From IMG/VR virus record IMGVR_UViG_3300026522_000029: DNA of 20,000 nucleotides; one strand, 5' to 3'. Below are positions 1-19,871 of this stretch, one piece after another (within the stretch, counting starts at the first letter, position 1; each line of letters opens with the position of its first letter). Both the position numbers and the translations under genes were made by a program. Source of the stretch: an uncultured virus (IMG/VR IMGVR_UViG_3300026522_000029). Taxonomy: Duplodnaviria > Heunggongvirae > Uroviricota > Caudoviricetes. The notes below the pieces were generated by a model. The model had not been told where the DNA came from, searched no databases, and worked only from the letters and a program-made list of their open reading frames with translations.

Positions 1-3000
1 GTTCAACAGCTTCATCAAGTTTTGTATTAACAGTCACATCAATGACATGTTCTGCATTAATATAATTATCTAATTCATCTTCAAAATATTTAAGTGCTTC
101 ATCATTAATTTCAATGGTTACTCCATCATCAGATGTCATTGCATCTAAAATACTTTGAAGTTGTTGAGCTGATTCTTCTGCGTCTTCTCTTGTCTGGTCT
201 AATTTCGCTACGTCTATTGCATTTTCGATATTTCCCATCGCATCTGCATAATTGTAAACGGAATCAACACCATCGTTCATTGCTTCACGAACGGTCTTAA
301 CATCTTGAGCTAATTGAGGATATTTTTCAAGTAAAGCATCTAATTCAGTATTTAATGCTGTTTGATCATCTTCTCCAAGGACATTTCCTTTAGAAATAGA
401 CTCAAGAGCATCTTTCGCATCTTTCGCTCCTGCAACAATAGTAGAAAGAGCGTCCGCTTGATTTTGCATCTTATCAGTAGTTTCGTCAGTATCTTCACCA
501 ACTTTAACTAAAGATAAATCTAGATCTCCTAATCCAGATGTCAGAGTTTCTATTGAAATCCCCGTGCTGTCAGAAATAGCTTTTAAATTATTGAAGGCGT
601 CAGCCCCAATTTTATCTTTCAAACTGTTTTCATCTAGTTCTTTTCCATCTTCAGAAAGTTCTTTAACAGCCTTTTGGATTTCTTTAATTTTATCAATATC
701 TATTCCTGTACCTGACCAAGCATTAGCAATTTGATCTTCTAACTGTCCAGAATTTTTATAATACTGAGTAATTACATCTTTTAACTGTTTTATTAATTCT
801 TTATCTTGCGTCGCTAAAGCAGAAGGGAGGGCCTCTTGAGCTTGAGACATTTTATCAGATTCATCTTTTAATATCTCTTCATAGTTCTTTTCCCACTCAT
901 CTATATTAGCTTGAATTTCTTTTAGAACCTCTCCATTGTTCGCAGCTTTTACTGCTTGCACAAAGGCTTCTTCGGCTTTTTTATCAAATTGTCCAATTCC
1001 AATTAAATAATCAGCACCCGATTTGCTAATATCTTGGCCATTTGCCTGAGCACTCTTCTTAGCTAAATCAACATCTGTCCCATAGAAATTCTGATCATTA
1101 GAAGCCATATCAAAGGTGCCACTCTTAAAAGCCTGTCTAGTAGCCTTGTTTGTTGCTTCTGCATTTATTTTGTTTAGAGTCTCTTGGTTTTTAATCTCAG
1201 CTTCTAATTCAGCATTTTGAGCTTTTAGATTTACCAAATCTTGAGCATCTGTAATAGAAATTGTTCCTTTACTTTGGATTTCATTAATTTTATTTGTTGT
1301 TTCATCTAACTGTGTATTTAATGAATCCAAATTATCTAGTCCAGAAGAGTATTCGTCCGTACTTTCTTTTAAAGCCTCTCCCGCTTCTTTTGCAGATGTA
1401 TGTAAACTATCAATTCCTTTTACAACAAAAGGAATGGCTGCACTTATCGCCCCTAAAACAAGTCCAATGGGTCCCATCGCAGCTTGCAAAGACACAAAAC
1501 CGCTAATCAAAGTAGGAATCATCGCTGCAAGACCAGAAATTGCTCCAGTAGCATCAACTGTCCCATCACTTAATCCAGAGAAAATGTTCATCAATCCGGC
1601 TCCGCTAGAAGACAACTGTCCAATAGCTGCTGTTGCCTGAACAATATTTTGAATTAAAGATTGTTGCTCCGCTTCTTTCTGGATTCCTTCTTGAGCAGCA
1701 TTTACTTTTCCAAGTGCCGTATCTTGCTCATCGAGTTTCTTGTTGATATTATCAATATCAATATCTAATGCGGCGCCAGCTTGGTTTGCATATTTATAAG
1801 TAATGATAAGAGCATTTTGGATGTCTTGTAAATGGCTTTTAGTCACAGGTATCTGATTCCTATTAACATCATCCAAAGTTTGAACAGCTTGTTGAACTTC
1901 TGGCGGAAGAGAAGTATTTCCCTGAAGAGAAGATAAATCAATTCCCTGGATTGTTTCTTTAATAGCTTTCTTACTATCTCTTGATATTCCTCCAGATTTG
2001 AAAATCACAGAATTAGCAGCATCTTTGGCTTTTTCTATTTCTTTCGTAATATCTTTTATTTGAATTTGGAGATCAACAAGTTCTTCTGAGTTTCCTCTTA
2101 TATTACTGCCTGCGCCATTTAGCTATTTTGCATATTTTTCTGCTTTAGCAATAATATTTTCATAATCTTGTTGCTGCTGAACTAACAATCCTTCTTGTTT
2201 AAGAAGTTCATTATATTGATTTCGTTGCTCGTTCGTCAAAGCAGAAGCGTATTTTGCAATACCTTTATAAGATGCTTGCATTGCAGAAACAGCTGGATTA
2301 CTTGAAATTCCGTTCAAGCCAGCTATCTGATTTATCATTTGCTCACTCTGCTGAAGAATAGCTTTATTATTGAAAGCATTTTGAATATTAGTAACAATAC
2401 TATTAATCTATCCTGCAATTGTCTTATTAAAAACTAGACTAAGTGTTGAAGCAAAATTCGCTAATACAACGCCGCCACCACCAATAGCATCTGATAACTT
2501 GGTGAAAATATTTAATAAACTTGTTCCAAAATCAATTACATTTTTAAAACTGTCTGTATCTGCTAAAGACTGAATTAAACCTTCTTGTGCGGTCTTTAAT
2601 TGATTTGTATGAGCCGCTAATGATTCCATATAAATATCATTTTTCTCATTCAACTCATTATTCGCATCAAGAGAAGTATTTAGTTCCTTAGTATATGTAT
2701 CCCAGTTATCATACAACGCAATTAAGTTGTTCATTTGGCGCTGGCCCGCCATAGTCTGAGCAAGATAGACCTGCTGCTCTCTGCTCATGCTAGACCATTT
2801 CTGACCAATTTCGGTCATTACATCACCAGTATCACGAAGCTTATTATTTTGATCAAGAACATTGATACCGACTTCTGCCATTTTCTTAGTATAATTACCA
2901 AGTGAAATTTCGGCATCATCAGTTCCAGCTTTTATATCATTAATTCTTGAATAAATTGTTTTGAGAGCGTTACCAGTTGTTTCTGGGGCCTGTCGTGTTA

Positions 3001-3949
3001 CCTGTGTTATCGTAGCTATCTGTGCTGCCAACTGATCAATTGTAACACCCATATTATTAGCAATAGAAGCAGATTTAGACATTGCTGTTGCTAATTCTGA
3101 CATGTCAGAAGCAGAAGAATCTGCTACTGCTGCCAATTTAGATACTGCTTTTTCAGCATTTTCTGATGAAATTTGATAACCATTCCAAACGGCTGTTAAA
3201 TTATCTGCCATTTCAGAAGGATCTTGTCCAGTGATATTAGATGCCTTTAATGTTGCTTCTGTTCTAGCTGCACTATCTTGTGCTCTCATACCTTGCTGTA
3301 CAAAAGTTAAATACGCATTGGTATAATCCTTTGTTTGTCTACCTAGCGACGCTGCTGCTTCATTCGCAGATTGAGCAAAAGCATCCATTTTCTCTTGAGA
3401 ATCACCAGTGACAATTCTGATATCATTTAATGAACCATTTAACGCTTTTACGTAATTAAAAGCATTCTGGACCGCCCCAGAAAACTGATTAATAATACTA
3501 GATGAAATATTCCATTTAATAGTATTTGATAAGGTCTCGCCCATCTTATCCAAAATATTTTGGGCACTTTTTAAATTTAAATTTGCTCCATAGACCTGAG
3601 CGGCAACACTGGCAAAAGCCCTTTGTCCAACCGCACCAACTTGTGAAAAATCACTATAAATTTTTTCAATAGTCAGATCAGAATTGGACAATTCTTGATT
3701 AAATTTTGTAACATTTATTGAATCTAATTTTGGGTTAAAAGCCTTCATCAAGGCTCTTTCAACCTTATCAGCAGTTTCTTCTACTGCTGTTAACTTATCT
3801 CTTGCCTAATCAGCGGATTTTGCGTTGATAATACTTTTTGTACCAGCAGTATAAATAGCATTAAGAGCCTATTTAACTTGCTTTAAACCAGAAGTATCAA
3901 CATTAAAGCCCACTCCAAAGGTTATTTTTCCACCATTATTGTTAGCCAT
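1..3949 (-). CDS. Tail tape measure protein (3' end runs off the window; at least 1316 codons; 4 in-frame TAG)
   Basis: ATG at 3949 with AAGGAGG RBS at about 3961-3967. One frame joins ORFs 2408..3751 and 2123..2338 and the open region 1..2122 across TAGs at 3869-71, 3806-08, 2408-10 and 2123-25. TP901-type TMP core (LNDIRIVTG...SDMSELATAMSK...QVTRQAPETTGNALKTIYSR...AGQRQMNNLIAL) followed by Ala/Gln/Glu-rich helical sequence. Confidence 0.93.
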
Positions 3950-3999
3950 ATGAATGCTAACCTCCTTTTACTCTATTCTCTCCGCCTAAAAATACGCAT

Positions 4000-4039
4000 A
4001 AAAAAAATTCCATTCTACAGAATTCTGTAAAATGGAATT
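4000..4039 (-). terminator. Intrinsic terminator-like hairpin between chaperone and tape measure genes
   Basis: Inverted repeat AATTCCATTcTACAGAA/TTCTGTAaAATGGAATT (4006-4039). The single mismatch is a G-U pair on the minus strand, and a U-tract follows on that strand. Confidence 0.7.
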
Positions 4040-4054
4040 ATTTGATTATTTAGC

Positions 4055-4648
4055 TTAGTCCTTGGGGGCGTGATCTGAAATTGAGGCAATCTTGGCGGCG
4101 CCGCCATTATTTATACCTGTTGCCGTTGCAAGATTTGCAAGTCTTTCAACTTCTGGAAACTTATCTTTATTAGCATCAATGATATCCATTGTCTGTTGCA
4201 TCTTCGTCGGCAAGTCATTAATCAAAGTCTCCAAGAATCCACCTATACTTTGATTATGATTAATCATATTTTCTTTATTAGTTTTCAAATAATCAAGAAG
4301 AGTTTCATATTCATCCTCCTTCATATGACTAATAACTTCATTAATTAAACCACTACACTGAAGTTTATCATACAGCTCGGCTTCATCTTCCTTTTGCTTA
4401 TCTGTAAAATTAATATTAGTATATAAATAAATAATATTCAAATTGAAATGCATCTCAAGGGCAACTTCGTCAATAATTCCATCATGGGATGCTTTTTGCA
4501 GAGAAATTTGAATTAAATCTTCTTTATCTGCAATGGGAAGATATTTATATACTTCAATCGGAAATTTTTCTCCGTTATATTCAAAATCAAAATTATTTGT
4601 AGAATTATCTACTTTAAGCTTCATTTTTGCAAATGATACTATTGCCAT
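4055..4648 (-). CDS. Hypothetical protein, probable tail assembly chaperone (197 aa)
   Basis: Intact acidic ORF with AAGGAG RBS and TAA stop, directly upstream of the tape measure gene. Function inferred from position only. Confidence 0.6.
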   Translation of the reverse strand: MAIVSFAKMKLKVDNSTNNFDFEYNGEKFPIEVYKYLPIADKEDLIQISLQKASHDGIIDEVALEMHFNLNIIYLYTNINFTDKQKEDEAELYDKLQCSGLINEVISHMKEDEYETLLDYLKTNKENMINHNQSIGGFLETLINDLPTKMQQTMDIIDANKDKFPEVERLANLATATGINNGGAAKIASISDHAPKD

Positions 4649-4685
4649 TTTATTTTTCTCCTTTTATCTCCATTTTTCTATTTTT

Positions 4686-4714
4686 ATTTTAACAAAAATT
4701 TTCAATTATGTCAA
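4686..4714 (-). promoter_or_regulatory. Sigma-A/sigma-70-type promoter
   Basis: TTGACA (4714-4709), 17-nt spacer ending in TGT, then TAAAAT (4691-4686), upstream of the 4648 ATG. Confidence 0.75.
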
Positions 4715-5871
4715 ATCTTCACGCCTATTGTTTGTTTTATCTATTTGGGAACTTCATTAGTAGCAACTACTTCTACTTTATTCCTTAATCCTTTTCGGAT
4801 ATTTTGCTTTATTGGGTCTTTATATTGTTTCTATAAAGAAATTTGTTTTAATTCAGAAACAGTCTTTATTTTATTATTTAAAATTTGGTTTGCAAGAGTA
4901 ACCATCTGGGTATATCCAGGAAGAGAAGCATTTAATGATTTTACCGCATAATCGTATTCATTTGTAGTTATATCTGAAGCATATAGTCCAGATACATTAT
5001 CAACATTGACAACACCTTCTCGAATAAAATAGTCCATATTTCTATTATATACTCGCCCTAAAAAAAGAGTGTTTGGATTACTTCCTTCGCCACCAGTGTA
5101 GAAAAAATATGCATAGGCCTCTGCAATATCTCCGGCGGCGCCGCCAATAGTCAACTTATACCAAATATTTTCCGTATCTATTTTCCAAAAAACATGGGGC
5201 TTCCATTTTTTATAATCTGCATCTGTCTCTTTATATGCTTCATTAAGTCCTTTTAAAGATTGTGCCCCTATAATAGAGTCTTTCCTAATAGCTTCTGCTA
5301 AATCCGTTTTAACTTTATCAATACTAATTTTTAAACGCCCAACTAATCGTGGAATTTTAGCAGAACTCATATCTGTTGTTATTGAAATTCCTTTATCTCC
5401 TTGCAAAATTTTTTCCATTGGAATATTAAGTATTATTGGATTTCCATCTGCATCTAGGAAAACAATAGATATCTATGCTTTATGCCCTGTTATAATTTCA
5501 AGAATTCTCGCATTAAAAATCATTGAAGCTGCATAAAAATTATCTAATGTTTTATTAGCTAATCTCTATTGTTTGAATTTTTCTCTAGCTTCAATATATT
5601 GCTGCACTTCTACAGGATTTTCCACAGTACCTGGAGCAACCTTTAAACTATGTCGTTTGTTCCTTAGAGATAAAGCGGTTTGCTCTAATTGCATAATCTC
5701 TTCTCGGCTAGCTTTAATAACTTCTATAAAATCTAAAGCATATTTTTTCATTAAAAGAGAACCGTCATCACCAAGTTTTTTTAATTCCTCCGCGCTTTTA
5801 TCTCCAATAAGATTGGCTATTTGCTATATTGCCCCATCAGATACTTTTATATCCGGGCCAAAAGTTGCCAT
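4711..5871 (-). CDS. Hypothetical protein (386 aa, 5 in-frame TAG)
   Basis: ATG at 5871 with GGGAGG RBS. One frame through TAGs at 5824-26, 5566-68, 5473-75, 4831-33 and 4741-43, joining ORFs 5566..5751 and 4831..5418; ends TGA at 4711-13. Confidence 0.8.
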
Positions 5872-5987
5872 AATCTTCCTCCCTATACTTTTTTGAAAAA
5901 ATATTATATAATATAAATATAGAAAAAGTTCAAAGATATTCCTGTTGAGGAATTAAATCTTTACCTTAACAGAGAAAGCGTAATATT

Positions 5988-6326
5988 ATGACTAATCTGT
6001 TAAAGAACTTTTTCGAAACTAATGATATATGTGAAGCTGATGATATTATGTATTTAATTAAAATTAAAAATACTAGTATCACAGAATTTCATCTGAAAGA
6101 CGGACGTATTCTTACAAAATACATCTCACTAGGAGCATGTAATAAATAGCTACCGTCAGAAATTTTTATACCTATTAACAGAGGTATTATAATTAACAAG
6201 CATTATATTAAATGTATTAATAGATATATTTATCATATGCAAGATGGGACTATTTTTGAAGGTAAATTAAAAGCCACTAAATTACACAAAAAATTAAAAG
6301 ATGAATGCACTCATCATATATCATAA
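5988..6326 (+). CDS. Stand-alone LytTR-type DNA-binding domain protein (112 aa, 1 in-frame TAG); not in the ORF track
   Basis: MTNLLKNFFETNDICEADDIMYLIKIKNTSITEFHLKDGRILTKYISLGACNK*LPSEIFIPINRGIIINKHYIKCINRYIYHMQDGTIFEG... matches the LytTR pattern (DIxY...H..DG...SL....LP...F....R..IIN...I..I.....M.DG). TAG at 6147-49, TAA at 6324-26, then a terminator. Confidence 0.75.
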
Positions 6327-6331
6327 TAACA

Positions 6332-6368
6332 AAAAATAGGGGAAGTTTATTAGACTTCCCCTATTTTT
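6332..6368. terminator. Bidirectional intrinsic terminator
   Basis: AAAAATAGGGGAAGT-ttattag-ACTTCCCCTATTTTT lies between the convergent LytTR (+) and major tail (-) genes. Confidence 0.9.
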
Positions 6369-6382
6369 ATTTTAAATTACTA

Positions 6383-8557
6383 TTATACTCTTGCACCTGT
6401 GTTATCATTTTTTGAGCTGCTATCCTTACTCATATCGAGAATAGAACTTGCTGATTTACTATCTTCAGTAGAACCATGCTCAATCTCACTAGTATGAGGC
6501 ATTACTGGTCTACCCCTCTTAGCTCCTGCAATTGTATTATCAATAATCTGAACAACACAAAGAACTTTCTTAGTCTTATCAAAATATGTATATCCAGGGA
6601 ATGCGTCAAGAGTAAAATCAAATGTCAAATATATTCAATATAGATCGCTACTCTATATCCGTTCTCTTATGAACTGCTCTATGTTTCCATAGACGTTTAG
6701 ACTATATCTTCTCCCTCAACTTCACTTGTTAGGGAGTTTCCCATTTCCACTCGCTTGAGTGTACTGGCTCACGCCATAGTCGTTGAACTTGCAACTTATT
6801 TCCAGCTTTTACCTTTTAATATATAAGATATATTAGATTTTGTACATCCTACGATATCTCCTATTTCCTGTTGAGTTAAACCTTTTTTTCTTAACTCAAA
6901 AACCTTTTTAACGTCTTTTTCGGTCAATTTATGAAAATTACTATTTTCACCTCTTCTAGCATGGCTTAAACCCGTCTTAAAAGCATGAATCTGATTTTCA
7001 CTTGCTGTACACCATTCAAGATTTTCTAACTTATTATTTCTTTTGTTCCCATCTTTATGATTTACTTGCAAATTTTCCATGCCTTCTACTGGATTAAAAG
7101 CCATCAATACAAGTCGATGTACTCTAAAGGTTTTCTTTTTCCCATCTACTGTAGAGAAATTAATTATTTGATAATCTGTACCAGCTCTGTCTCTGGTTTT
7201 CATTTTTCCTGAATTATCACTAAAAAATTCTCCATCAGAAGTAACAGTATAATAATCTTTTAATTCTGGTAAAAAATCATGTAATCTCTTTTCCACTTTC
7301 GTGTCTCCTTTACATATTTTTAAATAAGTTGTTTAGCTGCGGGTTGTCTCATCTTTAACGTTTTTACTATACCTTAGTCATTACCCTCGCCATATCTTAT
7401 GTCGCCATAGATACTTAGTAGTTAAAGCTCTTAAAGATTTTTCCGCAATTAAGGAACTAGATCTTTTCAGCACTCTCATGCCGCCAAGCGCATTAATATT
7501 AGTTCACTTGGATCTCCAGTACTAGCCATCGTAATAGTAAAGTTAGACTGAAGTTTAGCATTTGGAATTGTCAGCGCGCCCTGCATATCTTTACCAGTAG
7601 CCTGATCTCTTACAAGAACATCAGCTTCAACATAGTAATAACCTGCAAATGTATCTGGTCTGATATCAGCTTCCCATACGTTTGCTGTTGGAAGATCAAT
7701 GTAATAATCAAGCATTACTGTCTGAGCTTTAGTAATCCCAGTTGCAGTAAGTGTCGTCTTAGGACTATTATTTTCATCTTTTGCAGCTGTCTCTTCAACG
7801 GTAACATCTGTTGCAAGAATCTCTCCAGTTACAGACTGTCCGTCATAATCAAGACTGTCATTATCAAGAGCAAGTACATAGATTGGTGCATCATCTACAC
7901 AAACCTTAGCAATAAATTTATTATCACTACCAATACCGTACTCAGCAATAGCATCAGAAATATCAATTTTACCACTTGCATCAACAGATACGATTCCATT
8001 CTGATGAACATGAACTTTTTCAATTCCATTACCATAACCAGTACTATGGAAAAGATCTGCACCAGAAAGAATGCTCAGTCCAACAGGAGAAAGCAGGGCA
8101 TCTGTAAATTTCAGAGTTAATGTTTTGTCTCCTTCCCACGCAATAAGTCTTGTATTTCCTCTACCACCAGTTGCATATACGGTAGTAGCTGCTTGTTCAA
8201 GGGAAGAAGTAGTTGCTGTGTCAATATAAAGAACTGGTTGACCAGGATGAAAAGTCTGGCTACCAATTACAACTTCTTGTTTTGAACGCAAAGTTAAGTT
8301 TGCGACTTCTCTTCATAAGTATATAAACCTATGGACTATCTCTTACAAAAGTTCTAAGACTTTTGTACACCTTTTTCGATCCACTTACCAATAGTGAACC
8401 TACCTGAGCTATCAGGCTCATTAGTCTCTACATCGCTCTATAATAGTATGACACGGGGTTCTCCATGTAGGCATTTCCCGTTAGCTACTTTATAAAAGTA
8501 ACCCCTATGGTGTTAGGCTAAGGTGTATAAGCACAAGATATTCATGCCAAATCTCAT
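6383..8557 (-). CDS. Major tail (tube) protein, spliced: exons 8557-8544, 8313-7506, 6625-6383 (354 aa)
   Basis: GGAGG RBS, ATG at 8557. Removing two group I introns gives an uninterrupted frame MRFGI/REVANLTLRSKQ...GGRGNTRLIAWEGDK...NFTITMASTGDPS/TFDFTLDAFPG. The GDPSTFDFT and GGRGN motifs and the position upstream of chaperone and TMP fit a tail tube protein. Confidence 0.85.
6626..7505 (-). mobile_element. Group I intron (880 nt) carrying an HNH ORF, in the major tail gene
   Basis: 5' exon ends CCAAGU and pairs with intron GCUUGG (P1 with U-G at the splice site). P AAUUGCGGAA 7450-7441, Q AACCCGCAGC 7345-7336, R GUUCAACGACUA 6788-6777, S AAGAUAUAGUCU 6710-6699, terminal G at 6626. A 10-bp stem (7331-7322 with 6801-6792) closes the ORF in the P6 region. 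Confidence 0.93.
6796..7296 (-). CDS. Intron-encoded HNH homing endonuclease with C-terminal HTH (166 aa)
   Basis: VHRLVLMAF...VNHKDGNKRNNKLENLEWCTASEN HNH motif; C-terminal GLTQQEIGDIVGCTKSNIS helix-turn-helix; GTG start with AAGGAG RBS; TAA stop; no TAG. Confidence 0.92.
   Translation of the reverse strand: MEKRLHDFLPELKDYYTVTSDGEFFSDNSGKMKTRDRAGTDYQIINFSTVDGKKKTFRVHRLVLMAFNPVEGMENLQVNHKDGNKRNNKLENLEWCTASENQIHAFKTGLSHARRGENSNFHKLTEKDVKKVFELRKKGLTQQEIGDIVGCTKSNISYILKGKSWK
8314..8543 (-). ncRNA. ORF-less group I intron (230 nt) inside codon 5 of the major tail gene
   Basis: P1 exon GGCAU with intron GUGCU; P10 UCUU with 3' exon AAGA; P3 UACACCUU (8527-8520) with AAGGUGUA (8373-8366); R GUAGAGACUA 8431-8422; S AAGAGAUAGUCC 8344-8333; P8 ACAAAAGU/ACUUUUGU; terminal G at 8314. 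Splicing restores the frame. Confidence 0.9.
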
Positions 8558-8561
8558 AAAT

Positions 8562-9377
8562 TTATTCCTCCGATAAAAATCTATCAAATTTTTCTTTTTT
8601 CCTTAAAAGAAAAAACTAAGGATCATTTTTATACATATATTGTGCAAGCTTTAAAGAGTCTTTTTTACCAAAAGTCAAATGATAGCAAGTCTTTGCTTTA
8701 TTACAAAAACTGATAGAACCGCCTTCTATATCGGATTTCTCTCTTAAAACTCTCAAAAGCTCTTCAAGAAAAATGCGACTACCACTTGAAAAATTAGAAT
8801 TTATTCTATTATCTTTCACAAACCAGACGCTGCCGTCCCCATCAAAGTATCCTCTAACAAAATCAGCAATAAATTCATCTGGAATCTCTTTAGGAAAAAC
8901 AGCCGTTAAACTTTTACGTTCGGCGCCGCCCAGTTTTCTTATATCATTATAAATAGTAACGCAACTAAAATTGATTCTTGAAGATTGAGTATCCACCGCG
9001 TCTTGCAGATTTCCCTCATACTCCATGTCTTTTGCAATTTGTTTTAAAATGTACTTATCTTTTCTATGCTGAGTTATATCAAACATTTGTCCTCGATAAA
9101 TACAACCATCTGCCCACCATAGACCTAATGTATAAGCCATATTATGTGACCAGTGTTTAAAATAATCTTCATTTATATGATATTTTCTCGCATTTTTCGA
9201 TTGAATTTTTGACTTCTCTTCTTTTGAAAGATGTGCTATTCGACAATCATTGTGATAACAAAAATCATATATCATCTTTCTTGGATATTGAAAACCAAAA
9301 AATTCTTCCCATTCTGGCAAGGTTTTACTATCGCTCTGGGCGAGTAGAATCTCCTTATGCTCCTTTAATATTGGCAT
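8562..9377 (-). CDS. Free-standing two-motif LAGLIDADG homing endonuclease (271 aa, 1 in-frame TAG)
   Basis: Motifs AYTLGLWWADGCI and FVRGYFDGDGSV. Reading TAG 8616-18 adds FFLLRKKEKFDRFLSEE, the usual LxRK tail, to TAA at 8562-64. It starts 20 nt after the upstream gene's TAA, so it is not in an intron or intein. Confidence 0.9.
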
Positions 9378-9397
9378 ATTAAATTCCTTTCAATTTC

Positions 9398-10159
9398 TTA
9401 ATGATTGAGAGAATTCAAATCTCCCATCCAATTGTCTACTTCATCTAAATCCTTAGCCCCCGCCAATTTTTCCTGAACATAAATATCAAAATTTTGTTTC
9501 ATAATAAATCGACGAAACTAATTCATTATCTGATAAACGCTATAATCTAAAAGTGTATTTATATCCTTTTTCTATCCTACTGCTAAAATTGAAATGTAAC
9601 GAGAAAAAATTGAAGACGTTTGTCCATCTTCTCTATTTTTCATCTTTGCTAATTTTTCATGATATTTCCGAAACTTCTCTGCTAATTTTCCTTCCACTTC
9701 TGTAGCAGGATTATATCCAGTTTGTTCATTAAAGATATCTTTTAAACAAAACATCTCTTTTACAATTTCTCTGAACTTATCAAAATTAGCTGCATTAATT
9801 TGTAATACCCTTGGTTTATCCCCACTAGTATCTATAAAACCAATACTTCCAGGCAAAAAATTGACCTTATAATTTGGAAACATCAGAAGCAATAGCATCT
9901 ATGCACAAGCTCTACTTCTTTGAGAAGCAGGATTTTTATCTTGTACGATTGACATAAATACATCAAAATTTGTTATTTTAGATAAATCAATATCGTCCTC
10001 AATCTTATCTTTAGATACAGTTAAAGTTTGACAACCTAAGAAAAAATTTTCCTAGCCAATCAAACCAATTTGTTTTAACGTTGGTTGATGAATATTTAAT
10101 TGAGCTTCTGGAAAAGGAATATCATTTTTAGAAAAGATAGAAAACTCATCACTGCCCAT
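9398..10159 (-). CDS. Hypothetical neck/tail-region protein (253 aa, 4 in-frame TAG)
   Basis: MGSDEFSIFSKNDIPFPEAQLNIHQPTLKQIGLIG*ENFFLG...EVDNWMGDLNSLNH. TAGs at 10052-54, 9899-9901, 9572-74 and 9518-20; start overlaps the end of the upstream gene; TAA at 9398-9400. Confidence 0.8.
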
Positions 10160-10769
10160 CTGTTAAATCTTCAGTAAAATGAAGCCCTCTATAAGATATA
10201 GTATACATAGAAATATCTTCATTTAAAACACTTAAATTACATCCTAAAAAAATATATTTCCCAAAACCAGATAGCTTTATATTATTCCCTATTGAATAAC
10301 CTATATTTTTATTTTTATCAGAAAGAGAATTTAAAATTCCATCAATATAACCGCAAATTTCCAGAGGACGAGTTTTATAATCATCAAGACACCAAGCATC
10401 CATATAGCAAATTACATCAAAATTAATTGTACAGTTTCTAAACTCTGGATTTTTACTTGGTTCAAAATTATCAAAAGAAACTAGGATATAAGATTTAATT
10501 TCTTCATGTTCTCCCCTTGGAATTTTTGGATTAAGCCTTATATATCCCTAGTTAATTAATCTGCCAACAGAGTAACTATCTATTTCATCTTGGTACTCTT
10601 GATTGCTCATATCTAAACAATCTGACTTATTAATTATTAATAGTCTTTTTAAAACATCGCTATAAGGATGAGAAGTTACAAAAAGAGTCTCAAGAATTTT
10701 TTGAATATCAAGACTACAAGATAAAAAAGATGAACGGAGAGGCTGCGTTTTGACTAAATCTTTTCTCAT
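10149..10769 (-). CDS. Hypothetical protein, possibly tail terminator/completion (206 aa, 1 in-frame TAG)
   Basis: ORFs 10548..10769 and 10149..10403 are in one frame, separated only by TAG 10548-50; ends TGA. Function from position only. Confidence 0.75.
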
Positions 10770-10773
10770 TCTA

Positions 10774-11829
10774 TCAACTCCTTATTGTAATATGTTTAAT
10801 ACTATTGCCATATTTTAAATTAAAACCATCTTTATATGATTTCTTTGTTTTTACTGTTATAAAAATACTTTTACCATCAATAGTATAAGAAATTAAATCA
10901 TCGAGGGCGGCGCCGCCTAATGTCTCTACTGACCACGATCCTGTAGTATCATCAGCCGCAGTGTATTTAACTTTTACATCAAATGGAGACAAAATATCTG
11001 GCCCAACAATTTCTTCTACCGACCGCGCCTCTTTATCTTTTTTAATTTTTTGATCTGTTGAAGTATAAGTTTCTTTTACTGCAACTCTAATAATTCCAGT
11101 ATCAGTTTTATTTGAACTTGATCCATAATTATCATTGTAAGCTTGGACTTCCCAAGGCTTACCATTTATATTGACTCTATCAAAACGTTTAAAAAAAGCT
11201 AAAGTAGTTTCATCTTTTGTAATATAAATTAATTTAGTATAATTCATATCATTCCAAACTACACCTTTTTTAACATTCCATAAAATATCTGTCTCATCTG
11301 GGCCAGATGTCCAACCACGATAAATTAGAGGATCGCCCTAACTACCATCTTTCTTTATTGGGATAATTTCAATTTCTTCATCCGCTCGTCGTATTTCTCC
11401 CCTAAAATAAGCTGTTTCTTCTGAATATTGCCTATATACAACCCAATAAGAGTCTGGAATCCATTCCTTTTTATTTGCGTGCCGCCAAATAAAAGTCGTC
11501 CCATTACGAAAATTAGTCTATAATAAATCATTATTATCCTTCACAACGGGATCAACTGAAACACTACATTCTTCAAAAGGAATTGAAATTTCTTTATCTT
11601 CATACTCGACGTGTTGTTTTTCTTTATTAATCAAACATCTAAAAAATGGACTAGTTTGTTTCTCTCCTTCAGAAGGAATATACTTTTGAACAACAGCCGC
11701 CTGATAAGAATAGTATAAAGCTTTTTTCATACTTCTTAATTTATCTTGGCGCATTCTCATCCATTGAGAGCTGTCCCCATCTGCTCCATAATAAGAAATT
11801 CGTTTTTTCATTCTATCAAGACCGTTCAT
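10774..11829 (-). CDS. Hypothetical protein, possibly head closure/stopper with beta-rich C-terminal domain (351 aa, 2 in-frame TAG)
   Basis: ORFs 11518..11829 and 10774..11247 are joined in frame through TAGs 11518-20 and 11338-40; ends TGA. Confidence 0.75.
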
Positions 11830-12136: not shown

Positions 12137-13940
12137 CTTTCTCCTCCGGCAATGGGGCAAGTGGTTCCATAATTTTAGTCATTGAGGAATGAAAAACACC
12201 ATTAACATCTTTAAATCTTCTTTTATACAGTCTTTGTAAATGAAATCCTTCTGCTGTATAATCTTTCTTTAACTGATTTAATTTAGCTAAGTGGTTCGCT
12301 TGGCTTGTGAATTTAAAATCCTGAAGTAGGTTGATGCTGCTACCAACCTAAGCTAGCTTTTTATCTAACTTCTCATATGCTTACTATTCGCATATGTTCG
12401 GCATATCTTTTTATCTTATGATGTCCTAAGATATCGAGTCTCGTGGGAGCTATTTTCTTATGGAATAATATTTTTTTCTTTTTCTTGGCAACCGTAAATA
12501 ATCATTTTCATATAATAGAGCACCTGCTTTTAGAACTTCTTCTTTCTTCCAATACCGTAGTGAATAAGCATTTTTATCTGTATATATTTTTTTAAATGAC
12601 AACCCATACTCATTATGAAGAAAAAGCATAATTTCCTCTAAGAAGTCTTTATTTGCAGAAGTAATATTCCAAAAAAGACTACCATCAATGCACCGCCCTA
12701 AACTTCCATCCCCGTCAAAATATCCTGCTATAAAATCTAGCATATATTCTTTTGGTATATTTGGAAGATGGTGCAATTTAAATGTTTTATTATTTACGAT
12801 ACCATAACTTTCTAATTGTTGTCGAATCTTCTTTGAAGCAAAAGCTAGACTAACTTCTTTATACGTCTTTTCTCCTAAATGAACATCATATTTTGCTATA
12901 TTGCCATTGAATTCTAACTCTTTAGCAATTAAATGTAAAATATCTTCATCTTTTTCAGCTAGAGTAATTACTATTCGGTTTCTTGCCCCTTTTGTAATTG
13001 GCAAATATCCATCTGCCGCAATAAACCCCATTAACCAGGCGCCATTATGGCTTAAAAGATTATAGTCGTCATTAACAGGGAACTTCCTCAAATCTTTTAC
13101 CGTCATAACTTCATGAGCCTCTTGGACATTACGAATATGAACATTATTATCTTTTAGAACGCTTTTTACTTTATCGAAACTAAAGTCTAGATTTAATTCC
13201 CTTACGATCTTATCTAAACCCCAACCCTTATTATATGCTTCAATAATGCGAAGTTGAGTTTCACGAGGAACTTGTATTTTCTTACGACCACCATAAGTTG
13301 GTCTTAATTTAATGCCTTCTTCTTTTAAAATTCTTTTAATAACTTTTGCGTCCCATTTTACTCCAATAGCTCGCTTTACTGCTTCAACACCCATCTTCTC
13401 ATCTACATAAAAATGGACGATTTTTTCTCTCTGCTATTTTGTAACTTTGATCATTTTTCCCATAAGTTTTAATCTCCTATGCTCTGCGCGTGTTTTAACT
13501 TTTAAATTAAAACTTCCGCTCTGATTCGCATTTCAGCATTCCAGTTTCTTACTCGAATTTAACCTATTAATTACTTAATAGGTGACCAATTTTATATTAG
13601 CCCCTGAATATTTCATTCTAGTTAATTCAACAGATGCAAGCTGTTGACCAAGCCAAGCTACAACCATATAAACTGCTAATATATTCTACTCTTCCAGATT
13701 GAGCTTATGTATAAAATAACTAATTATTTCAGTATTGCCATTATCATCTGTCACTTCTTGGTTTAACATATAATCTAATGACACTCTTGGAAATTCAAAA
13801 GAAGGGATAGCAGACAATAATAAATCTTGCGCTGCCACCTAAGTGTCTTCTTTTGTCATTTCCATATAAAAATCATCAGTTATTTTACTAAAAAATATAT
13901 CATATATATCTGAAAAAGGTGTAATATTGCCCATATCCAT
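12126..13940 (-). CDS. Head-tail adaptor-like protein, spliced: exons 13940-13599 and 12320-12126 (178 aa, 1 in-frame TAG); absent from the ORF track
   Basis: GGAGG RBS; MDMGNITPFSDIYDIFLVKITDDFYMEMTKEDT*VAAQDLL...TRMKYSGA/DFKFTSQANHLAKLNQLKK...; TAG at 13839-41; TAA at 12126-28. Adaptor call from size, helical pattern and position after the capsid genes. Confidence 0.8.
12321..13598 (-). mobile_element. Group I intron (1278 nt) carrying a LAGLIDADG ORF
   Basis: P1 GGCU/AAU-auaaa-AUUGGUC; P10 UAAAAUU with 3' exon GAUUUUA; P3 UCGAGU (13556-13551) with ACUCGA (12439-12434); P7 GCAGAGCAUA (13487-13478) with AAGAUAUGCC (12409-12400); terminal G at 12321. Splicing restores KYSGADFKF. Confidence 0.9.
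12411..13463 (-). CDS. Intron-encoded two-motif LAGLIDADG endonuclease with tandem N-terminal helical repeats (350 aa, 3 in-frame TAG)
   Basis: AGGAG RBS 13478-13474, ATG at 13463. TAGs at 13434-36, 12450-52 and 12426-28; TAA at 12411-13. Motifs WLMGFIAADGYL and FIAGYFDGDGSL. Confidence 0.88.
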
Positions 13941-13958
13941 CATCACACCTCCGAATTA

Positions 13959-14552
13959 TCAATTTTTCTTTGCGATAACTTTTACTTGTGGTTTGTCTTC
14001 TACATCAGCCGCAGTAATTATTGGGGCGGCGGCCCGTCTCTTCGTACTCTTTGTAGTAGACTCTTCTATAGATTCGCCTGTATCACCATCAAGTTTAGTT
14101 TCTTTAACTCTAATTGCTGCTTCTACATTAAAACCAGTTTTATCTAGAATAGCTTTTCGTTTTGCTACGTCATTTAATGGAAGATTTACTGCTTCCTCTT
14201 GAATTAAATCAATAACTCCATCTGGAGCAAAATCAAGACAATCAAGAAAAGCATCTAAATTATTTGGTGTTAAAAGAAGTCTCTTAATATCTTCTTCTGT
14301 ATAATAGTATTCTGGTTCAACATCAGGTAAAAGCTCTTTTGCTGCCTCATAGTCTTTAATCACCAGATACTTTTCAAGAATCTTTTCTCCAGCAGGGTCT
14401 GCTGCTACCTTTTCTAGTTCCTCAAATGTAATCTCTTTCGTCTCGCCTGGATGAAAATTTCTATGAGGAATAGCCATATCCTGTACATCATATCCTACTG
14501 TACCAGAATATCTATTTGTAACTTTAATCAATTTATCTTTAGCAACTGCCAT
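13959..14552 (-). CDS. Hypothetical protein downstream of the major capsid gene (197 aa)
   Basis: Intact ORF, AAGGAG RBS, TGA stop, low-complexity charged C-terminus. Confidence 0.8.
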   Translation of the reverse strand: MAVAKDKLIKVTNRYSGTVGYDVQDMAIPHRNFHPGETKEITFEELEKVAADPAGEKILEKYLVIKDYEAAKELLPDVEPEYYYTEEDIKRLLLTPNNLDAFLDCLDFAPDGVIDLIQEEAVNLPLNDVAKRKAILDKTGFNVEAAIRVKETKLDGDTGESIEESTTKSTKRRAAAPIITAADVEDKPQVKVIAKKN

Positions 14553-14580
14553 TTTTTATCTCCTTTTATCTCCATACGAC

Positions 14581-14612
14581 AAATAGGGGGAAGACATATG
14601 TCTTCCCCTTAT
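14581..14612 (-). terminator. Intrinsic terminator after the major capsid gene
   Basis: GGGGAAGAC-ATAT-GTCTTCCCC stem just 3' of the capsid TAA, with a short U-rich tail on the minus strand. Confidence 0.75.
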
Positions 14613-14622
14613 ATAATTTTAA

Positions 14623-15657
14623 TTACTTATTATCACGACTGAGATTTGTATTCTCATATACACAAATACCAGGATTAAACAGATAAGAAGCAACACCGAG
14701 TTTCTGATAAGTCTGAATTTCTCTTGACCAATCACGATTCTCAAAATCTTTAACCTGAGTTGTTCCTTCAAAAGCAACCTTAATAGGTTTCTCAGAGCCA
14801 GAAGGAATAATGTATGCCTTAGATGGATCAATAACCTTCTTAGCGTTATTAACGTCTTCAAAAGACTGAGGAAGAATAATTACGTTATGTCCCTTATAAG
14901 TTGAGAAATAACCATTATTCCATCTCTCCTGTTTCATTTCATTTGAAGCCCATGCAGCATCTGGAATCATCGTAGCTGCGAATTCAAATGTACAGTAAAT
15001 AGTAGACTGACCATATGCATCAGCAGTCTGAAGCAGTCTAACCATTTCACCATCATTGAAAGATGTCTGAGAAGTCTTATTTACAGGCTTGATATCCTTA
15101 GTCATAGCTTCAAGAGCCTTAGCAATCTCACGATAAACAGCTTCATCCATGCCTTCAAGAACAAGGCTGTAGAAGTCATTCATTGTATAACGACCATCAA
15201 GCATCTCTTCCCATTCAATTCTAGCCCCTCCGCCATAAGCACTTGTAGGAACTTCAATCTTATATCCATCAAGCTTAAAAGTCTCATAACGACCAGCCAG
15301 ACCAACTTTAGTAACGAACTGCTTAGCTCTCTTTCTGGAAGCTTCGCTAATTCTTACTTTAAATACCGGAAGTGTACCCTGCGGATATCTCTGAACGTCT
15401 GCAAACTGACCATACTCCTGAAGCACCTTAGTAGGAAGAACCTATGTAAGAGCAACTTCAAGCAACTCAAAAATTGTATTCTTATTTCTATCAAAATCAT
15501 GCGGTGTCTTACCAAGCTCATGAAGCTCATTCATGAAAGTCTTTTCAAGAGCGTCCGCCGTCATATTCTTATTGGCAAAAGTATACGCAACAGAAGGATT
15601 CAAGGAAGCCTTCGCAGCTGCTTTTGCAAGTGCAATCTGATTAGTGCGATCTAACAT
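14623..15657 (-). CDS. Major capsid protein (344 aa, 1 in-frame TAG)
   Basis: ORFs 15442..15657 and 14623..15426 are joined by TAG 15442-44 (FELLEVALT*VLPTKVLQEYGQFADV). Strong AAGGAGG RBS, terminator downstream, and size and position typical of an HK97-fold capsid gene. Confidence 0.88.
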
Positions 15658-15674
15658 CTCTGCTTTCCTCCTTA

Positions 15675-16205
15675 TTACGCAATTCTCTGAAGTTTAACTC
15701 CAGGCTGACCATCCGGCATAGTGTAAACTTTTACTACTTGGAATACTGGGCCATCGGCATTAACTTCTGTAGTAAGATAACCATCTGTTCCAACATAAAC
15801 TTTATCACCCTGATCAAGAGTAATACCTGCAACTTCAGCTTCTTTATCAGTATTTACTCCAAAAGTATTGGTTGTGAAAATATCATTCACATTAATCTCA
15901 ATAAGTCTAGGAGTAATTTCTCCATCGGTATAATTCTTAGCGATCATAGCGAAATCTTTATGACTCTGATATCTTTCATCATAAAGTTTCTCTTCATTAT
16001 AAATCATTAACCAAGGGCCTGCACCAGTAAGATCAACCTTACCATTAGCATAGTCATACTTAGCAAATCTACCCTGCTCAATTACCTTACCCATTGCCTC
16101 GGTATCAACAGGGAGCTGTGCATAAATGCTACCATCAACAATTCCTGTTAAATGGTTAGGTTCTACTTGGCCAAATCCACGTCTTTTAATTTGTGTTGCT
16201 GCCAT
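15675..16205 (-). CDS. Probable capsid decoration/cement protein (176 aa)
   Basis: ATG at 16205 behind GGAGG (MAATQIKRRGFGQVEPNHL...). Beta-rich and Gly-rich; lies between the scaffold and capsid genes. Confidence 0.65.
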   Translation of the reverse strand: MAATQIKRRGFGQVEPNHLTGIVDGSIYAQLPVDTEAMGKVIEQGRFAKYDYANGKVDLTGAGPWLMIYNEEKLYDERYQSHKDFAMIAKNYTDGEITPRLIEINVNDIFTTNTFGVNTDKEAEVAGITLDQGDKVYVGTDGYLTTEVNADGPVFQVVKVYTMPDGQPGVKLQRIA

Positions 16206-16224
16206 TATAGCATCCTCCATTAAA

Positions 16225-17538
16225 TTACATATTGTTTTCTACACTCATAACGGCATTAACCCAATCTGGTGTAGAATCTATACTATTGTTATCCATATTA
16301 ACTATTACATTATCCTGTTTTTCAGATGAAGTATCTAAGCCAAAATTGACACCTTTATGGCATCCAATTACAGCAAGCTTAGCTTCAATATCTTCAAGAG
16401 AATACTCTCTCTTATGCTCAATAACATCCTTCTTATCTTCGTTAGAAAGCATATAAAATTTAGCAATCAGAGCATCTTTTTCTTTATCTTCAGCTTGATT
16501 TTTAAATTCAACAAGCTTATTCATGTCTTCTGACATTGCATTAAATTTATTTTGAAGTTCAGTAAATTTACTCTCTAATTCAGCATATTCTTCATCTGTA
16601 TGGAGAGAATTCTTTGCTGCTGGCTTCTTTTCATCTTCTGTGCCAGTAGAATCATTATTTTCGCTAGGCTGATCGTTTTCTTCCTTTTTATCATCATTAC
16701 TAGCAAATTCTTCTGTGGCAGCAGCAGGATTTTGATTTTCTGTATTAGATTGATTTTCAACAGCACTTTCTTCAACAGAATTGCCCTGTTCTTCAGCTGC
16801 TGTGAATTCTTTCTTCTCTTCTGCCATGTTTTCTCCTTCTTTATAAATAGATTTTAAATCTTCCATCATACTAAATAAGGTACGTTTAAAATCTTTATCT
16901 AATGTGAAATCCTTGCTCACTTTAGGTTCTGTAACACTTGATCCTTCAAAACAAGGTTCTACATCATCACCTAAAACACAAAGTTTAGAAATTACTGCAC
17001 TATTGATAATAAAAAAATCAATTCCAGTATTATCATCAATTGTCCAATGACCGTCTAAAGTTTTATCGTCCAATTCCATCGAATGAGGTTTTCCATCATT
17101 TTCTAAAATTTGGGCGGCTTCCTTAAACTGTCCTGTCCAAAGATACCCTTCTGTCATCAAATAGGTTCTGATGATCTTGTTACCAAAGTCACCTGTTTCT
17201 TCAAAATCTTTAAACCAGACTTTAGAATCTGGAGCAACAAAACCATATGGTTTTGTTTCACACTCAAAATGCACTCCATCTCCATCAATAGTGATTTTTT
17301 CCCCATGATCTCGGAAATCTTCTTTCTCTTCATTGTAATAACCAACAATAGGACAACCTCTTAAGGTCGTTGCCATTTCTTCTGCTGTCTATTTACTAAT
17401 GAAACTGCCATTTCGATTCTTTCCAAGATAAAAAACTTTAATTTCACATTTAGATACTAAAGGAGAAATATCAGTAGATTGCAGATTTATAAATTCGATT
17501 CCATCTACTGTTGGAATACTCATATGCGGTAAACTCAT
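16225..17538 (-). CDS. Prohead protease-scaffold fusion (437 aa, 1 in-frame TAG)
   Basis: ATG at 17538 behind AAGGAG, coupled to the portal stop. GKNRNGSFISK*TAEEMATTLRGCPIVG...DH...SMEL...LCVLGDDVEPCFEGS protease-like N-half, then an acidic linker and coiled-coil C-half. TAG at 17389-91. Confidence 0.82.
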
Positions 17539-17548
17539 TTATATCTCC

Positions 17549-19168
17549 TTATAAAGATTCTCTATTAGCAATTGTTTTATTTGACTTATCTTCATCAGGT
17601 TTTTCGGGGCGGCCCGCGCTTGATGACTCCTCTGAACTTGCCCCTTCGCCGTTACCCGTCAAAGCTGTTAGAGTATCTGCATTCATAGTAGCACTTGTCA
17701 TTGGCGGAACAAATACTTTAATTAAATCTAGAACTTCATTCTCCCAATAAGCAGTCGCCAAAACAGAACTTTCTGATTGACCTAATGCAATAGCAGGCTT
17801 CAATTTACTAAATCCACTTCCAGTTTGATCTTTATACAATTTAGCCAAATCTTGATAGTTCTCGTTAGTAGTAGGTAGAATTTCGGCCATATAATAACAC
17901 TTTTTAGCGTTTCTATTATAGGGTTCTAATAAACTATTAAGAAAAGCTTCAAATTGTTGAATAAGATTATAAATACTAGAAGCATCATTTAAAGAAGAAT
18001 ACTTTAATGCATTATTGCTTGTACTATTAAAATTATTAATTGAAGTTCCAAATTCATCAAAAACAGAATCCTTAACTCTTGTAATATCATCTGATTGAGA
18101 AGTATTGCTCTTATCAGACATATCTGCTACATCGACATCTGCAAAAGTTGTTAATACATCAACACCAATAGCTTTACTTAGCATTTGTACGGCATTATTA
18201 TGTAAAGCCTGTGCCTCATCTACATCAAAAACAGGGTCGCCATTCTTATCTAATGGCATTTTTTGAACCAAGATTCTTAAAAGTTTTTGAGCTATTCTCT
18301 TTTGATCTAATTCTTTTGCAGTATCTAAATCAATAATTGCAGGAATCGCTGCAATAAAGATTGGAGTGTCATCACCATTAATATTAAATTTTATTGTGTT
18401 ATAAGGCGTGAGCATATACCATCCCGCCGTATCTCCAGGAAAATCTGGGACTAAACGACCTTCTTTATACGCCCTATATCCTTTTTTAAATTCCGGTGGA
18501 AAAACATTTAAAATTTTTGTCCTAAGTTCAGTTGTGGGATAAAAATTATCAAAAAAAGCCATATTGAATTCAACAGCTGGCCTACCATTAATGCTAAATC
18601 GAGTACGACAATAATCTGGCGGAAGCTCTTGAATAGAAATTTTGTCATTATTTGAAGTCGTCAAATATCCATAATAACACCCATTTTTGATAACTTTCAA
18701 AGCAGCGTCGCCGCAGAATTTCTTAACATTAAAATCATCAAATTTTTTAAGAATTGTAAAGAAATCTTTTAAATACCGATTTCTACTAGACTCACTTGGT
18801 TCATTATGTGATGGAACAACAACCAAACCTCTATCTACGACTGGCGTTATCATCCAATCATATCTATAAATATAGGCAACGTACCTACAAACTTTATTAT
18901 AAATACCACTAGTTCTATAATAAAAATTTGAAATAGCGCGTTCTTTATTCAAATTGCCATCAGCGATACATTTTACAACATAATCTTTATCACCAAAATT
19001 TTCATTTGCTCTACGATAAGTTCCAAGATTTAAAGTTGCATCTTCAAGAATCTTTAATCCTGCCCTTATCTTTCCGAAATTCATAGGAGTGTACACATCT
19101 TGAGAAGTGCCACTCTAAATATTCATAGCAAAACCTTTTTTATGTATTTCTTCAATTCGATTTATCAA
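17549..19168 (-). CDS. Portal protein (539 aa, 1 in-frame TAG)
   Basis: TTG at 19168 behind AGAGGTG; TAG at 19115-17 (codon 18) extends ORF 17549..19096. Size, position and the C-terminal GRPEKPDEDKS tail are typical of phage portals. Confidence 0.85.
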
Positions 19169-19197
19169 AGTAACACCTCTTCTAATTTTCTCATTTT

Positions 19198-19226
19198 ATT
19201 ATACATAAAATTTTTAATATTGTCAA
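19198..19226 (-). promoter_or_regulatory. Perfect-consensus sigma-A promoter upstream of the portal gene
   Basis: TTGACA (19226-19221), 17-nt spacer, TATAAT (19203-19198). Confidence 0.85.
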
Positions 19227-19236
19227 CATAAATGAA

Positions 19237-19597
19237 TTATTCTCCATAAGCTCTTTTTACAATATAATCATAGCTTATTCTTGATTCATCCGTATATGGA
19301 ATAGCTATTAATTTATATCCATGCTCTTTACAATATTCTCTTTTTTTCATATCATTATATTGTTGCTTACGGAGGCCCTACCAATTACCAAATTTAGACT
19401 TAGGGCAGTAATGCTGTATTCCTTGGTATTCAATTAAGAAATCAATATTTCCTTCATCATCAAACACTGCAAAATCGAAACGAAGCACACGACCCGAGGA
19501 ACTAACTAAATCTGGAAAAGAATACTCCTATGCAAAATCAAACCCTCCTGCCCTAAGGCAATCCTCTATCTTTATCTCACCCACGAGATGCCCTCAT
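19237..19597 (-). CDS. PD-(D/E)xK-like (Vsr/DUF559-type) endonuclease; 2 in-frame TAG and an apparent 1-nt frameshift near the start
   Basis: EIKIEDCLRAGGFDFA*EYSFPDLVSSSGRVLRFDFAVFDDEGNIDFLIEYQGIQHY...FGNW*GLRKQQYNDMKKREYC...LIAIPY. TAGs at 19528-30 and 19378-80; TAA at 19237-39. ATG 19597 (AAGGAG RBS) is one base out of frame at the GGG run 19582-19580. Confidence 0.75.
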
Positions 19598-19773: not shown

Positions 19774-19871
19774 AAAACCAACAAAAGAAAAACAAAAAGG
19801 CAATCTTATAACTTTATTTCTTAAAAATATTATTATATTATATTAATATAAAAAGAAATGAGGTGATAATT

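Follow-up and report, generated by a model that had tools for sequence, protein, structure and literature searches.

In-frame TAG codons in the structural genes of a ruminant-gut phage are probably read as glutamate

The stretch of DNA analysed here, hereafter the window, comprises 20,000 nucleotides of an uncultured tailed virus (IMG/VR record IMGVR_UViG_3300026522_000029; Caudoviricetes), and the question it raises is the meaning of the codon TAG, which recurs in frame in its genes. All recognisable genes lie on the minus strand and constitute a phage structural module. The module includes genes for a tape measure protein (2..3949, running off the window), a structural protein of unknown family designated g03 (4711..5871), the major capsid protein (14623-15657), a putative capsid protease (open reading frame (ORF) 16225-17538) and the portal protein (17549-19168), as well as several further structural genes that are unnamed and the genes of three homing endonucleases, one of the HNH and two of the LAGLIDADG type. 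A Pfam family was found for 6 of the 19 window ORFs given to the search. The tape measure protein contains PhageMin_Tail (1.4e-28) and the capsid protein weakly matches Phage_capsid_4; the portal gene and the putative protease ORF matched no Pfam family. A search for tRNA genes within the 20-kb window found none.

Twenty-eight in-frame TAG codons are distributed over 13 of the 18 ORFs, spanning 2123-2125 to 19528-19530. A preliminary description of this DNA had given exactly this span, 2123..19530, and counted 27 TAGs; the recount of 28 includes the codon at 16239-41, which probably lies upstream of the real start of its ORF. With TAG as a stop (table 11) 13 of the 18 ORFs are broken, and with TAG as sense they are full length compared with their relatives. 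The 17 complete ORFs terminate with TAA (11) or TGA (6) and never with TAG, and the in-frame stops over 4309 aligned window codons are 23 TAG, no TAA and no TGA. Because the TAG-bearing ORFs are full length against relatives and TAA and TGA never occur in frame, TAG is a sense codon in these genes. Near-identical DNA (79-100% of sampled words) is present in 20 runs from 12 studies, the records of which are bovine and sheep gut metagenomes, and none of the 40 listed differences (of ~1690) in these run contigs falls at a TAG codon. Exact stretches of the window did not occur in the viral or the metagenome contigs searched. A capsid search of metagenome contigs returned nothing nearer than an already known 83% relative, and megablast against phage records gave a single match (74% over 12% of the query). 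The window is best explained as the block of structural genes from a large tailed phage (about 100-140 kb) of the ruminant gut that probably reads TAG as Glu and retains TAA and TGA as stops.

Relatives were gathered by a capsid search of IMG/VR (10 loci, 58-83% identity) and by a portal alignment that contributed 80 further loci among at least 379 relatives; in-frame stops were counted by tblastn of the relatives' DNA against the window proteins. The in-frame stops in 36 relative loci are TAG, save one TAA each in three loci, and about 50 loci have no in-frame TAG (standard code), so that standard-code homologues and independent TAG users both occur in the clade. The closest DNA relative is locus L003 of genome G001 (contig L041; about 64% complete), the capsid protein of which is 83% identical; TAG is common to the window and L003 at four sites. 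The standard-code tally used 50 loci with one vote per 90%-identity cluster and columns with at least 5 votes. For the likelihood, each amino acid was scored by an empirical substitution table from the same alignments, normalised per column.

The residues opposite TAG resemble those opposite Glu codons. Across the 10 loci, the 23 window TAG columns hold 121 cells, composed of Glu (40%), Asp (9%), Ala (9%), Lys (8%) and TAG itself (7%); after cluster deduplication a Gln codon occurs in 1 of 98 cells of the same columns. Control codons in the same alignments gave Glu 47% for GAA, Glu 51% for GAG, Gln 48% for CAA, Gln 57% for CAG, Asp 57% for GAT and Lys 57% for AAA. Among the standard-code relatives, Glu is the plurality residue in 7 of 14 TAG columns and Gln in none (the others have Leu, Phe, Ile, Asp, Ala, Ser or a gap), and the cells are 43% Glu, 11% Asp and 2.5% Gln. 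GAA/GAG columns there have a Glu plurality in 63%; CAA/CAG columns have a Gln plurality in 47% and a Glu plurality in 17%, with 48% Gln and 9% Glu by cell. The preliminary description had offered two readings, Glu decoding or Gln fixed at Glu sites, and the tally favours the former: the TAG columns resemble the Glu controls, differ from the Gln controls and are nowhere in the DNA-based alignments dominated by Gln, the outcome it had named as contrary to its proposal.

The likelihood analysis also placed Glu first. For the window, Lys followed at 12.1, Gln at 16.1 and Asp at 16.9 ln units behind; with standard-code relatives only, Lys was 8.5 and Gln 11.3 ln units behind. Column bootstraps picked Glu in 1903 of 2000 replicates with all relatives and in 1868 of 2000 with standard-code relatives only, and for each of eight codons the correct residue was recovered from all 500 random draws of 23 control codons. 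When the TAG-using relatives were scored one by one, Glu was best in each. Pooled over the clade, the lead of Glu was 98 ln units over Gln, 107 over Asp and 115 over Lys, and Glu was picked in all 2000 bootstraps. The 352 TAG cells of 22 non-redundant TAG users are opposite Glu in 54%, Asp in 9% and Gln in 5.7%; by column plurality, 217 of these cells fall at Glu and 14 at Gln. In the same 22 users, GAA/GAG columns have 56% Glu and 3.8% Gln, and CAA/CAG columns 51% Gln.

The reverse tally points in the same direction. TAG stands opposite 3.1% of GAG, 3.0% of GAA, 1.0% of CAA and 0.3% of CAG cells. Were TAG read as Gln, the synonymous CAG-TAG transition should be the commonest exchange, and its rarity disfavours that assignment. 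The GAG share of Glu codons opposite TAG is 0.26, compared with 0.24 in GAA columns and 0.37 in GAG columns; because it resembles the GAA columns rather than the GAG columns, the TAGs are not recent one-step derivatives of GAG. Taking these controlled alignment statistics with the Glu-type suppressor tRNAs of relatives described below, Glu is the best-supported reading of TAG for this phage and its clade, and probably the correct one.

The tRNAs were surveyed in three TAG-using relatives that are complete or nearly so, namely G006 and G007, both of which have terminal repeats, and G008, at 99% completeness; each has one uninterrupted tRNA(CUA) among 13-25 tRNAs per genome. The tRNA(CUA) family is present in 9 IMG/VR contigs as five distinct sequences with an invariant anticodon loop, CUCUAAA; all 20 cloverleaf pairs are kept, 8 of them changed on both sides. 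ARAGORN labels the CUA anticodon as pyrrolysine, an assignment ruled out by TAG columns that are Glu-like and not Lys-like. A degenerate pattern of the acceptor strand and D-arm of tRNA(CUA), the N positions of which were set with Bacillus tRNA-Glu in mind and so favour a Glu result, matched at least 120 bacterial loci. Among the 120 loci listed, ARAGORN called 118 as tRNA-Glu (101 UUC, 17 CUC) and made no call for 2, and the record titles available for 80 of them all name Bacillota organisms. When compared with 66 distinct tRNAs (20 isotypes) of three Bacillota genomes, the best match of tRNA(CUA) was always tRNA-Glu (0.75-0.78), with tRNA-Gln at 0.61-0.64. Comparison with the phages' own 95 tRNAs singled out no isotype (0.62-0.68 to many).

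The identity positions of these tRNAs are also of the Glu type. The acceptor pairs of the G008-type tRNA(CUA), G1-C72, G2-U71, C3-G70, C4-G69, C5-G68 and G6-C67, equal those of Bacillota tRNA-Glu, and the D-arm signature of Bacillota tRNA-Glu is found in the CUA tRNAs of G006-G008. The identity set of tRNA-Gln comprises U1-A72 and G73, and tRNA-Gln in the same three Bacillota genomes begins with U1-A72 or A1-U72. The relatives' CUA tRNAs have C-G, G-C or G-U as pair 1-72 and A or C as discriminator, and thus lack the tRNA-Gln-like set. Most Bacillota have no glutaminyl-tRNA synthetase (GlnRS) and make Gln-tRNA by means of glutamyl-tRNA synthetase (GluRS) and the amidotransferase GatCAB, which recognises U1-A72. 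A search of five relatives gave no gene of the GluRS/GlnRS family, so the phages presumably rely on enzymes of the host. Decoding would probably be carried out by a phage-encoded tRNA(CUA) built on a Bacillota-type tRNA-Glu scaffold, as seen in the complete TAG-using relatives. The host GluRS would charge it, and because GatCAB recognises a U1-A72 pair absent from this tRNA, the charged tRNA would escape conversion to Gln-tRNA and deliver Glu. G007 has in addition a tRNA with the ochre-type anticodon UUA and a Glu-like D-arm (L129:6222-6296); its aligned structural genes (L068) contain 19 in-frame TAGs and no in-frame TAA.

Several observations weigh against the assignment to Glu. Alignment columns show the residues tolerated at a site and not the residue inserted. 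Glu is the plurality in only half of the assessable window columns, and five columns clearly hold something else (Ile 15/16, Phe 8/16, Ala 15/32, Ser 21/32 and a variable Leu column); nine tape-measure and g03 sites lie in variable columns in which relatives have Lys, Arg, Asp or Ala. These non-fitting columns are the main limit of the window-only evidence, and some scatter is expected since many genuine GAA/GAG columns also have no Glu plurality. Lys takes second place when the likelihood is computed for the window only and is picked in 90-92 of 2000 bootstraps. As for the tRNAs, the Asn and Asp isotypes come next to tRNA-Glu by a small margin (0.70-0.73), the CUA tRNAs of G006-G008 have a variable loop of 5 nucleotides (4 in tRNA-Glu) and A36 rather than C36, and G001 has no uninterrupted tRNA(CUA) among 21 Infernal tRNA matches. 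Finally, a database protein 96% identical to g03 has Glu, Gln, Gln, Gln and Gln at the five TAG sites.

This last protein bears on the most obvious rival, ordinary code 15, under which TAG would be Gln and would have reached Glu sites by tolerated GAG-to-TAG (Glu-to-Gln) changes. We consider it very improbable, even though phage TAG recoding is described as Gln throughout the literature searched and the two residues are similar; the accessible text of Crisci et al. (PMC8346664) reports some TAG/Glu alignments in Lak phages that are still read as Gln. Public protein records of the window and its relatives (P0058, P0105 and P0147) also have Gln at TAG, and the window's own LAGLIDADG record does so at all three TAGs. 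Two database proteins match the translations of L003 and L007 except that they have Gln where the DNA has TAG, at 12 of 12 sites. Because Gln sits exactly at the TAG positions of the DNA, these proteins were made with table 15, and Qs translated from TAG in this way are not independent evidence for Gln; by analogy with the 12 sites, the four Gln residues of the g03 homologue are attributed to the same practice. Gln opposite TAG at 2.5% in the window and 5.7% in the clade, against 48-51% opposite CAA/CAG, its failure to reach a plurality in any of 14 columns, the 0.3% of cells in which TAG faces CAG, compared with 3% for GAA/GAG, and CUA tRNAs without the U1-A72 of tRNA-Gln all argue against code 15. 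Decoding that is ambiguous or different, such as Glu with some Gln (by mischarging or partial transamidation), Lys or Asp, is somewhat less improbable yet still unlikely. It would accommodate the second place of Lys in the window, the second place of Asp in the all-cells likelihood for window and clade, the nearly equal Asp and Glu counts at capsid codon 72 (12 and 11) and the several TAG sites in non-acidic columns, and the accessible text of Borges et al. (bioRxiv 10.1101/2021.08.26.457843) cites E. coli amber suppressors as prone to glutaminylation. The clade-wide lead of Glu over Gln, Asp and Lys in every bootstrap, and TAG at near-invariant Glu sites (14/14, 30/32 and 107/119), speak against it. 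That the TAGs are real stops, in genes that have decayed, were misassembled or are read through at a low level, is hardly credible. Such stops would break the ORFs as table 11 does, and the TAG at 12450-52 does coincide with the usual end of LAGLIDADG proteins; but genes are interrupted only by TAG and never by TAA or TGA, homology continues in frame across every TAG, TAG positions are common to relatives, near-identical DNA occurs in runs of 12 studies, and 34 related contigs show the same behaviour. For the structural genes, conservation across the TAGs refutes real stops.

Eukaryotic nuclear codes with TAG as Glu exist in peritrich ciliates (NCBI table 30) and Blastocrithidia (table 31), in which TAA is Glu as well. 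The phage resembles them in the assignment of TAG, judged here by alignment statistics only, and differs in that TAA ends 11 of 17 complete ORFs and never occurs in frame; since it is a bacterial virus and not a eukaryote, its code would have an independent origin. In the literature searched, which did not extend to subscription-only papers, there is no report of TAG as Glu in phages and only of TAG as Gln. The TAG-recoded gut phages assigned to code 15 include the crAss-like phages, the Lak phages and the clades of Borges et al. (see also Peters et al., PMC9523058). Like them, the present phages have in-frame TAG in structural genes and keep TAA and TGA as stops, and the relatives' tRNA(CUA) lies among many phage tRNAs. 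Table 15 was likewise assigned in the accessible text of Cook et al. (PMC11210395) and in a 2026 jumbo-phage survey. The difference lies in the residue: the accessible text of Crisci et al. gives Gln opposite TAG in 75-85% for Lak phages and takes occasional Glu as GAG-to-TAG change, whereas Gln is at 2.5-5.7% and Glu at 43-54% here. The relatives' suppressor resembles Bacillota tRNA-Glu and not tRNA-Gln, and the five relatives searched gave no release-factor gene.

Phage stop-codon recoding has been treated as two cases only, TAG as Gln and TGA as Trp, with annotation tools that hard-wire table 15 for every TAG-recoded phage. If the assignment is true, the natural codes of bacterial viruses are wider than thought, and public proteins of the clade carry Gln where the phage makes Glu, some at family-invariant Glu positions. 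The proposal in the accessible text of Borges et al. that susceptibility of the host GlnRS enables amber recoding would then miss hosts that use GluRS and an amidotransferase.

In place of an uninterrupted tRNA(CUA), the closest relative G001 has a well-formed Glu-like tRNA with a 62-nucleotide insert in the anticodon loop (L041:12196-12333; ARAGORN, introns allowed). The D-arm is identical to the one in phage tRNA-Glu(UUC) genes, and the variable loop has 4 nucleotides. In the ARAGORN call the anticodon is UUA; a one-base shift of the insert yields CUCUAAA, the loop of the CUA family, and the sequence fits both. The insert folds as a three-hairpin domain closed by a 7-base-pair stem and matched no Rfam ribozyme or intron family. 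A strict pattern combining the Glu-type D-arm of G001 with the CUA loop had no match in IMG/VR viral contigs. RtcB was not found in the five relatives, and four of them have a gene of the RNA_ligase family (PF09414; G001:C1:28584-29123, G006, G007 and G002). This gene was rejected as an explanation for the split tRNA, for it is also present in genomes that have no split tRNA. We offer a wider scheme tentatively and regard it, taken whole, as rather unlikely. It holds that a clade of ruminant-gut phages, probably infecting Bacillota, uses TAG as Glu with TAA and TGA as stops, a code in no table for bacteria or their viruses, by means of a tRNA-Glu-derived suppressor that uses the host GluRS and escapes the Glu-to-Gln amidotransferase; in the nearest sub-branch the suppressor would be split by a cloverleaf-like 62-nucleotide insert, with late-gene translation gated by tRNA processing. 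Further unusual RNA genes lie on L041 at 19822-19892, 14783-14856, 12765-12883 and 10571-10913; they are a tRNA with an 8-nucleotide anticodon loop (ACCA), another whose anticodon is ACA, a second insert-bearing tRNA (37-56 nucleotides, in the anticodon arm), and a phage-borne transfer-messenger RNA.

The individual sites, all on the minus strand, range from near-invariant Glu to clearly discordant (votes of standard-code relatives, in one-letter code, unless stated otherwise). Codon 19 of the small ORF 19237-19584 (19528..19530) has E 30, M 1, Q 1 (n=32), E in 21 of 22 TAG users and E 111, Q 7 in 120 database homologues; a few homologues of this ORF carry PF10881. In ORF 9398-10159, codon 36 (10052..10054) has E in 14 of 14 votes (TAG users E 6, TAG 3), codon 214 (9518..9520) has E 12, T 1, Q 1 (n=14; TAG users E 8, TAG 1) and codon 196 (9572..9574) has E 9, L 3, Q 2 (n=14; TAG users TAG 4, E 3), while codon 87 (9899..9901) is variable, with L 4, M 2, N 2, E 1, Q 1 and others (n=14). 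Codon 50 of the putative protease (17389..17391) has E 19, D 10, N 1 (n=30; TAG users E 15, D 3, TAG 3). At codon 72 of the major capsid protein (15442..15444) every vote is acidic, D 12 and E 11 in standard-code relatives and E 16, D 1 and TAG 1 (L003) in TAG users. Codon 74 of ORF 10149-10769 (10548..10550) has E 9, D 3, K 2 (n=14). In ORF 10774-11829, codon 104 (11518..11520) has E 8, P 4, K 2, Q 1 (n=15), and codon 164 (11338..11340) falls in a gap in 10 of 15, with E 3 and K 2 otherwise.

Other columns are discordant. In ORF 13575-13946, codon 36 (13839..13841) has F 8, A 3, E 1 (n=16; TAG users F 12) and codon 87 (13686..13688) has I 15, V 1 (n=16; TAG users I 12, E 1, Q 1, V 1). Codon 69 of the small ORF 19237-19584 (19378..19380) has S 21, E 3 (n=32) and, in the database, S 49, E 27, T 15 (n=120). 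Codon 18 of the portal gene (19115..19117) has A 15, S 3, E 2 and others (n=32), and TAG in L003. The four TAGs of the tape measure gene (3869-71, 3806-08, 2408-10 and 2123-25) lie in poorly conserved columns: codon 27 has K in 4 of 4, codon 48 has K, D, D and N, codon 514 has A, G and F, with TAG in L003, and codon 609 has A. The five g03 sites (5824-26, 5566-68, 5473-75, 4831-33 and 4741-43) correspond to TAG, K, R, K and E in L003 and vary among 26 database homologues (Q 6, D 6, N 5, E 3; K 8, Y 5, H 4; R 8, T 7, K 5; Q 11, K 10; E 11, Y 6). The TAG at 16239..16241, codon 2 of the longest ORF 15675-16244, aligns with no relative and was not counted as sense. ORF 8221-8466, of 81 codons with three further TAGs, lies in the spacer between a LAGLIDADG gene and the gene at 7476-8291; neither a family nor a relative matched it, and it is probably not coding.

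The two LAGLIDADG genes (8562-9377 and 12411-13463) and the HNH gene (6796-7296) lie between structural genes on the minus strand. In ORF 12411-13463, the preliminary description had noted an internal repeat, IKVTK-TAG-QREKIVHFY / IQVPRETQLRIIEAY, in which the TAG at 13434-36 (codon 10) stands opposite the E of the second copy. This repeat is present, and the homologues agree at codon 10 (E 107/119, Q 5, K 2, gap 5). Two further TAGs in the 3' tail of this ORF (12450-52 and 12426-28) lie beyond the end of most homologues; several of the closest stop at residue 337, just before 12450-52, and codon 346, the second tail TAG, has no counterpart in 110 of 119. The TAG at 12450-52 probably once served as a stop and is now read through, and in a TAG-reading phage the protein would gain a 13-residue tail. 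At codon 254 of ORF 8562-9377 (8616..8618), Glu is the plurality (E 23/135, S 19, K 18, D 15, Q 3); homology runs past the TAG to query residues 260-269, and 4 of the 5 best matches read NPELFLLRK.

The preliminary description had listed nine contexts in which Glu would be expected, and seven of them hold: those of LAGLIDADG codon 10, protease codon 50, capsid codon 72, LIN-TAG-GYIRL (E 9/14), LIG-TAG-ENFF (E 14/14), IMN-TAG-FRRF (E 12/14) and KNDP-TAG-FFLLRK, with Glu in 4 of its 5 best matches. FGNW-TAG-GL (S 21/32, E 3) and EDT-TAG-VAAQ (F 8/16, E 1) do not. Its further remark that no TAG context clearly needs Gln stands, as Gln is the plurality in no DNA-based column. Its description of a LAGLIDADG gene as intronic is not supported, since no Rfam family reached the gathering score anywhere in the window, group I introns included. 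A group I intron with a LAGLIDADG gene is likewise not supported, since no intron RNA was recognised at that score and the endonuclease ORFs sit between structural genes.

The structural genes flanking the three homing endonuclease genes are adjacent, or nearly so, in relatives, and in contigs from other runs position 6616 is linked to 7506 and 12252 to 13841. Strains therefore differ in whether they carry the endonuclease elements. Among the other relatives, the IMG/VR contig L088 (131,615 bases) has six in-frame TGAs and no TAG in its aligned structural genes, which makes it a candidate TGA-recoded phage within this clade. In L006 (15124-17044), the homologue of the gene at 7476-8291 is split by ~1.2 kb, with query residues 1-60 and 58-266 apart, pointing to an intron, intein or other inserted element.

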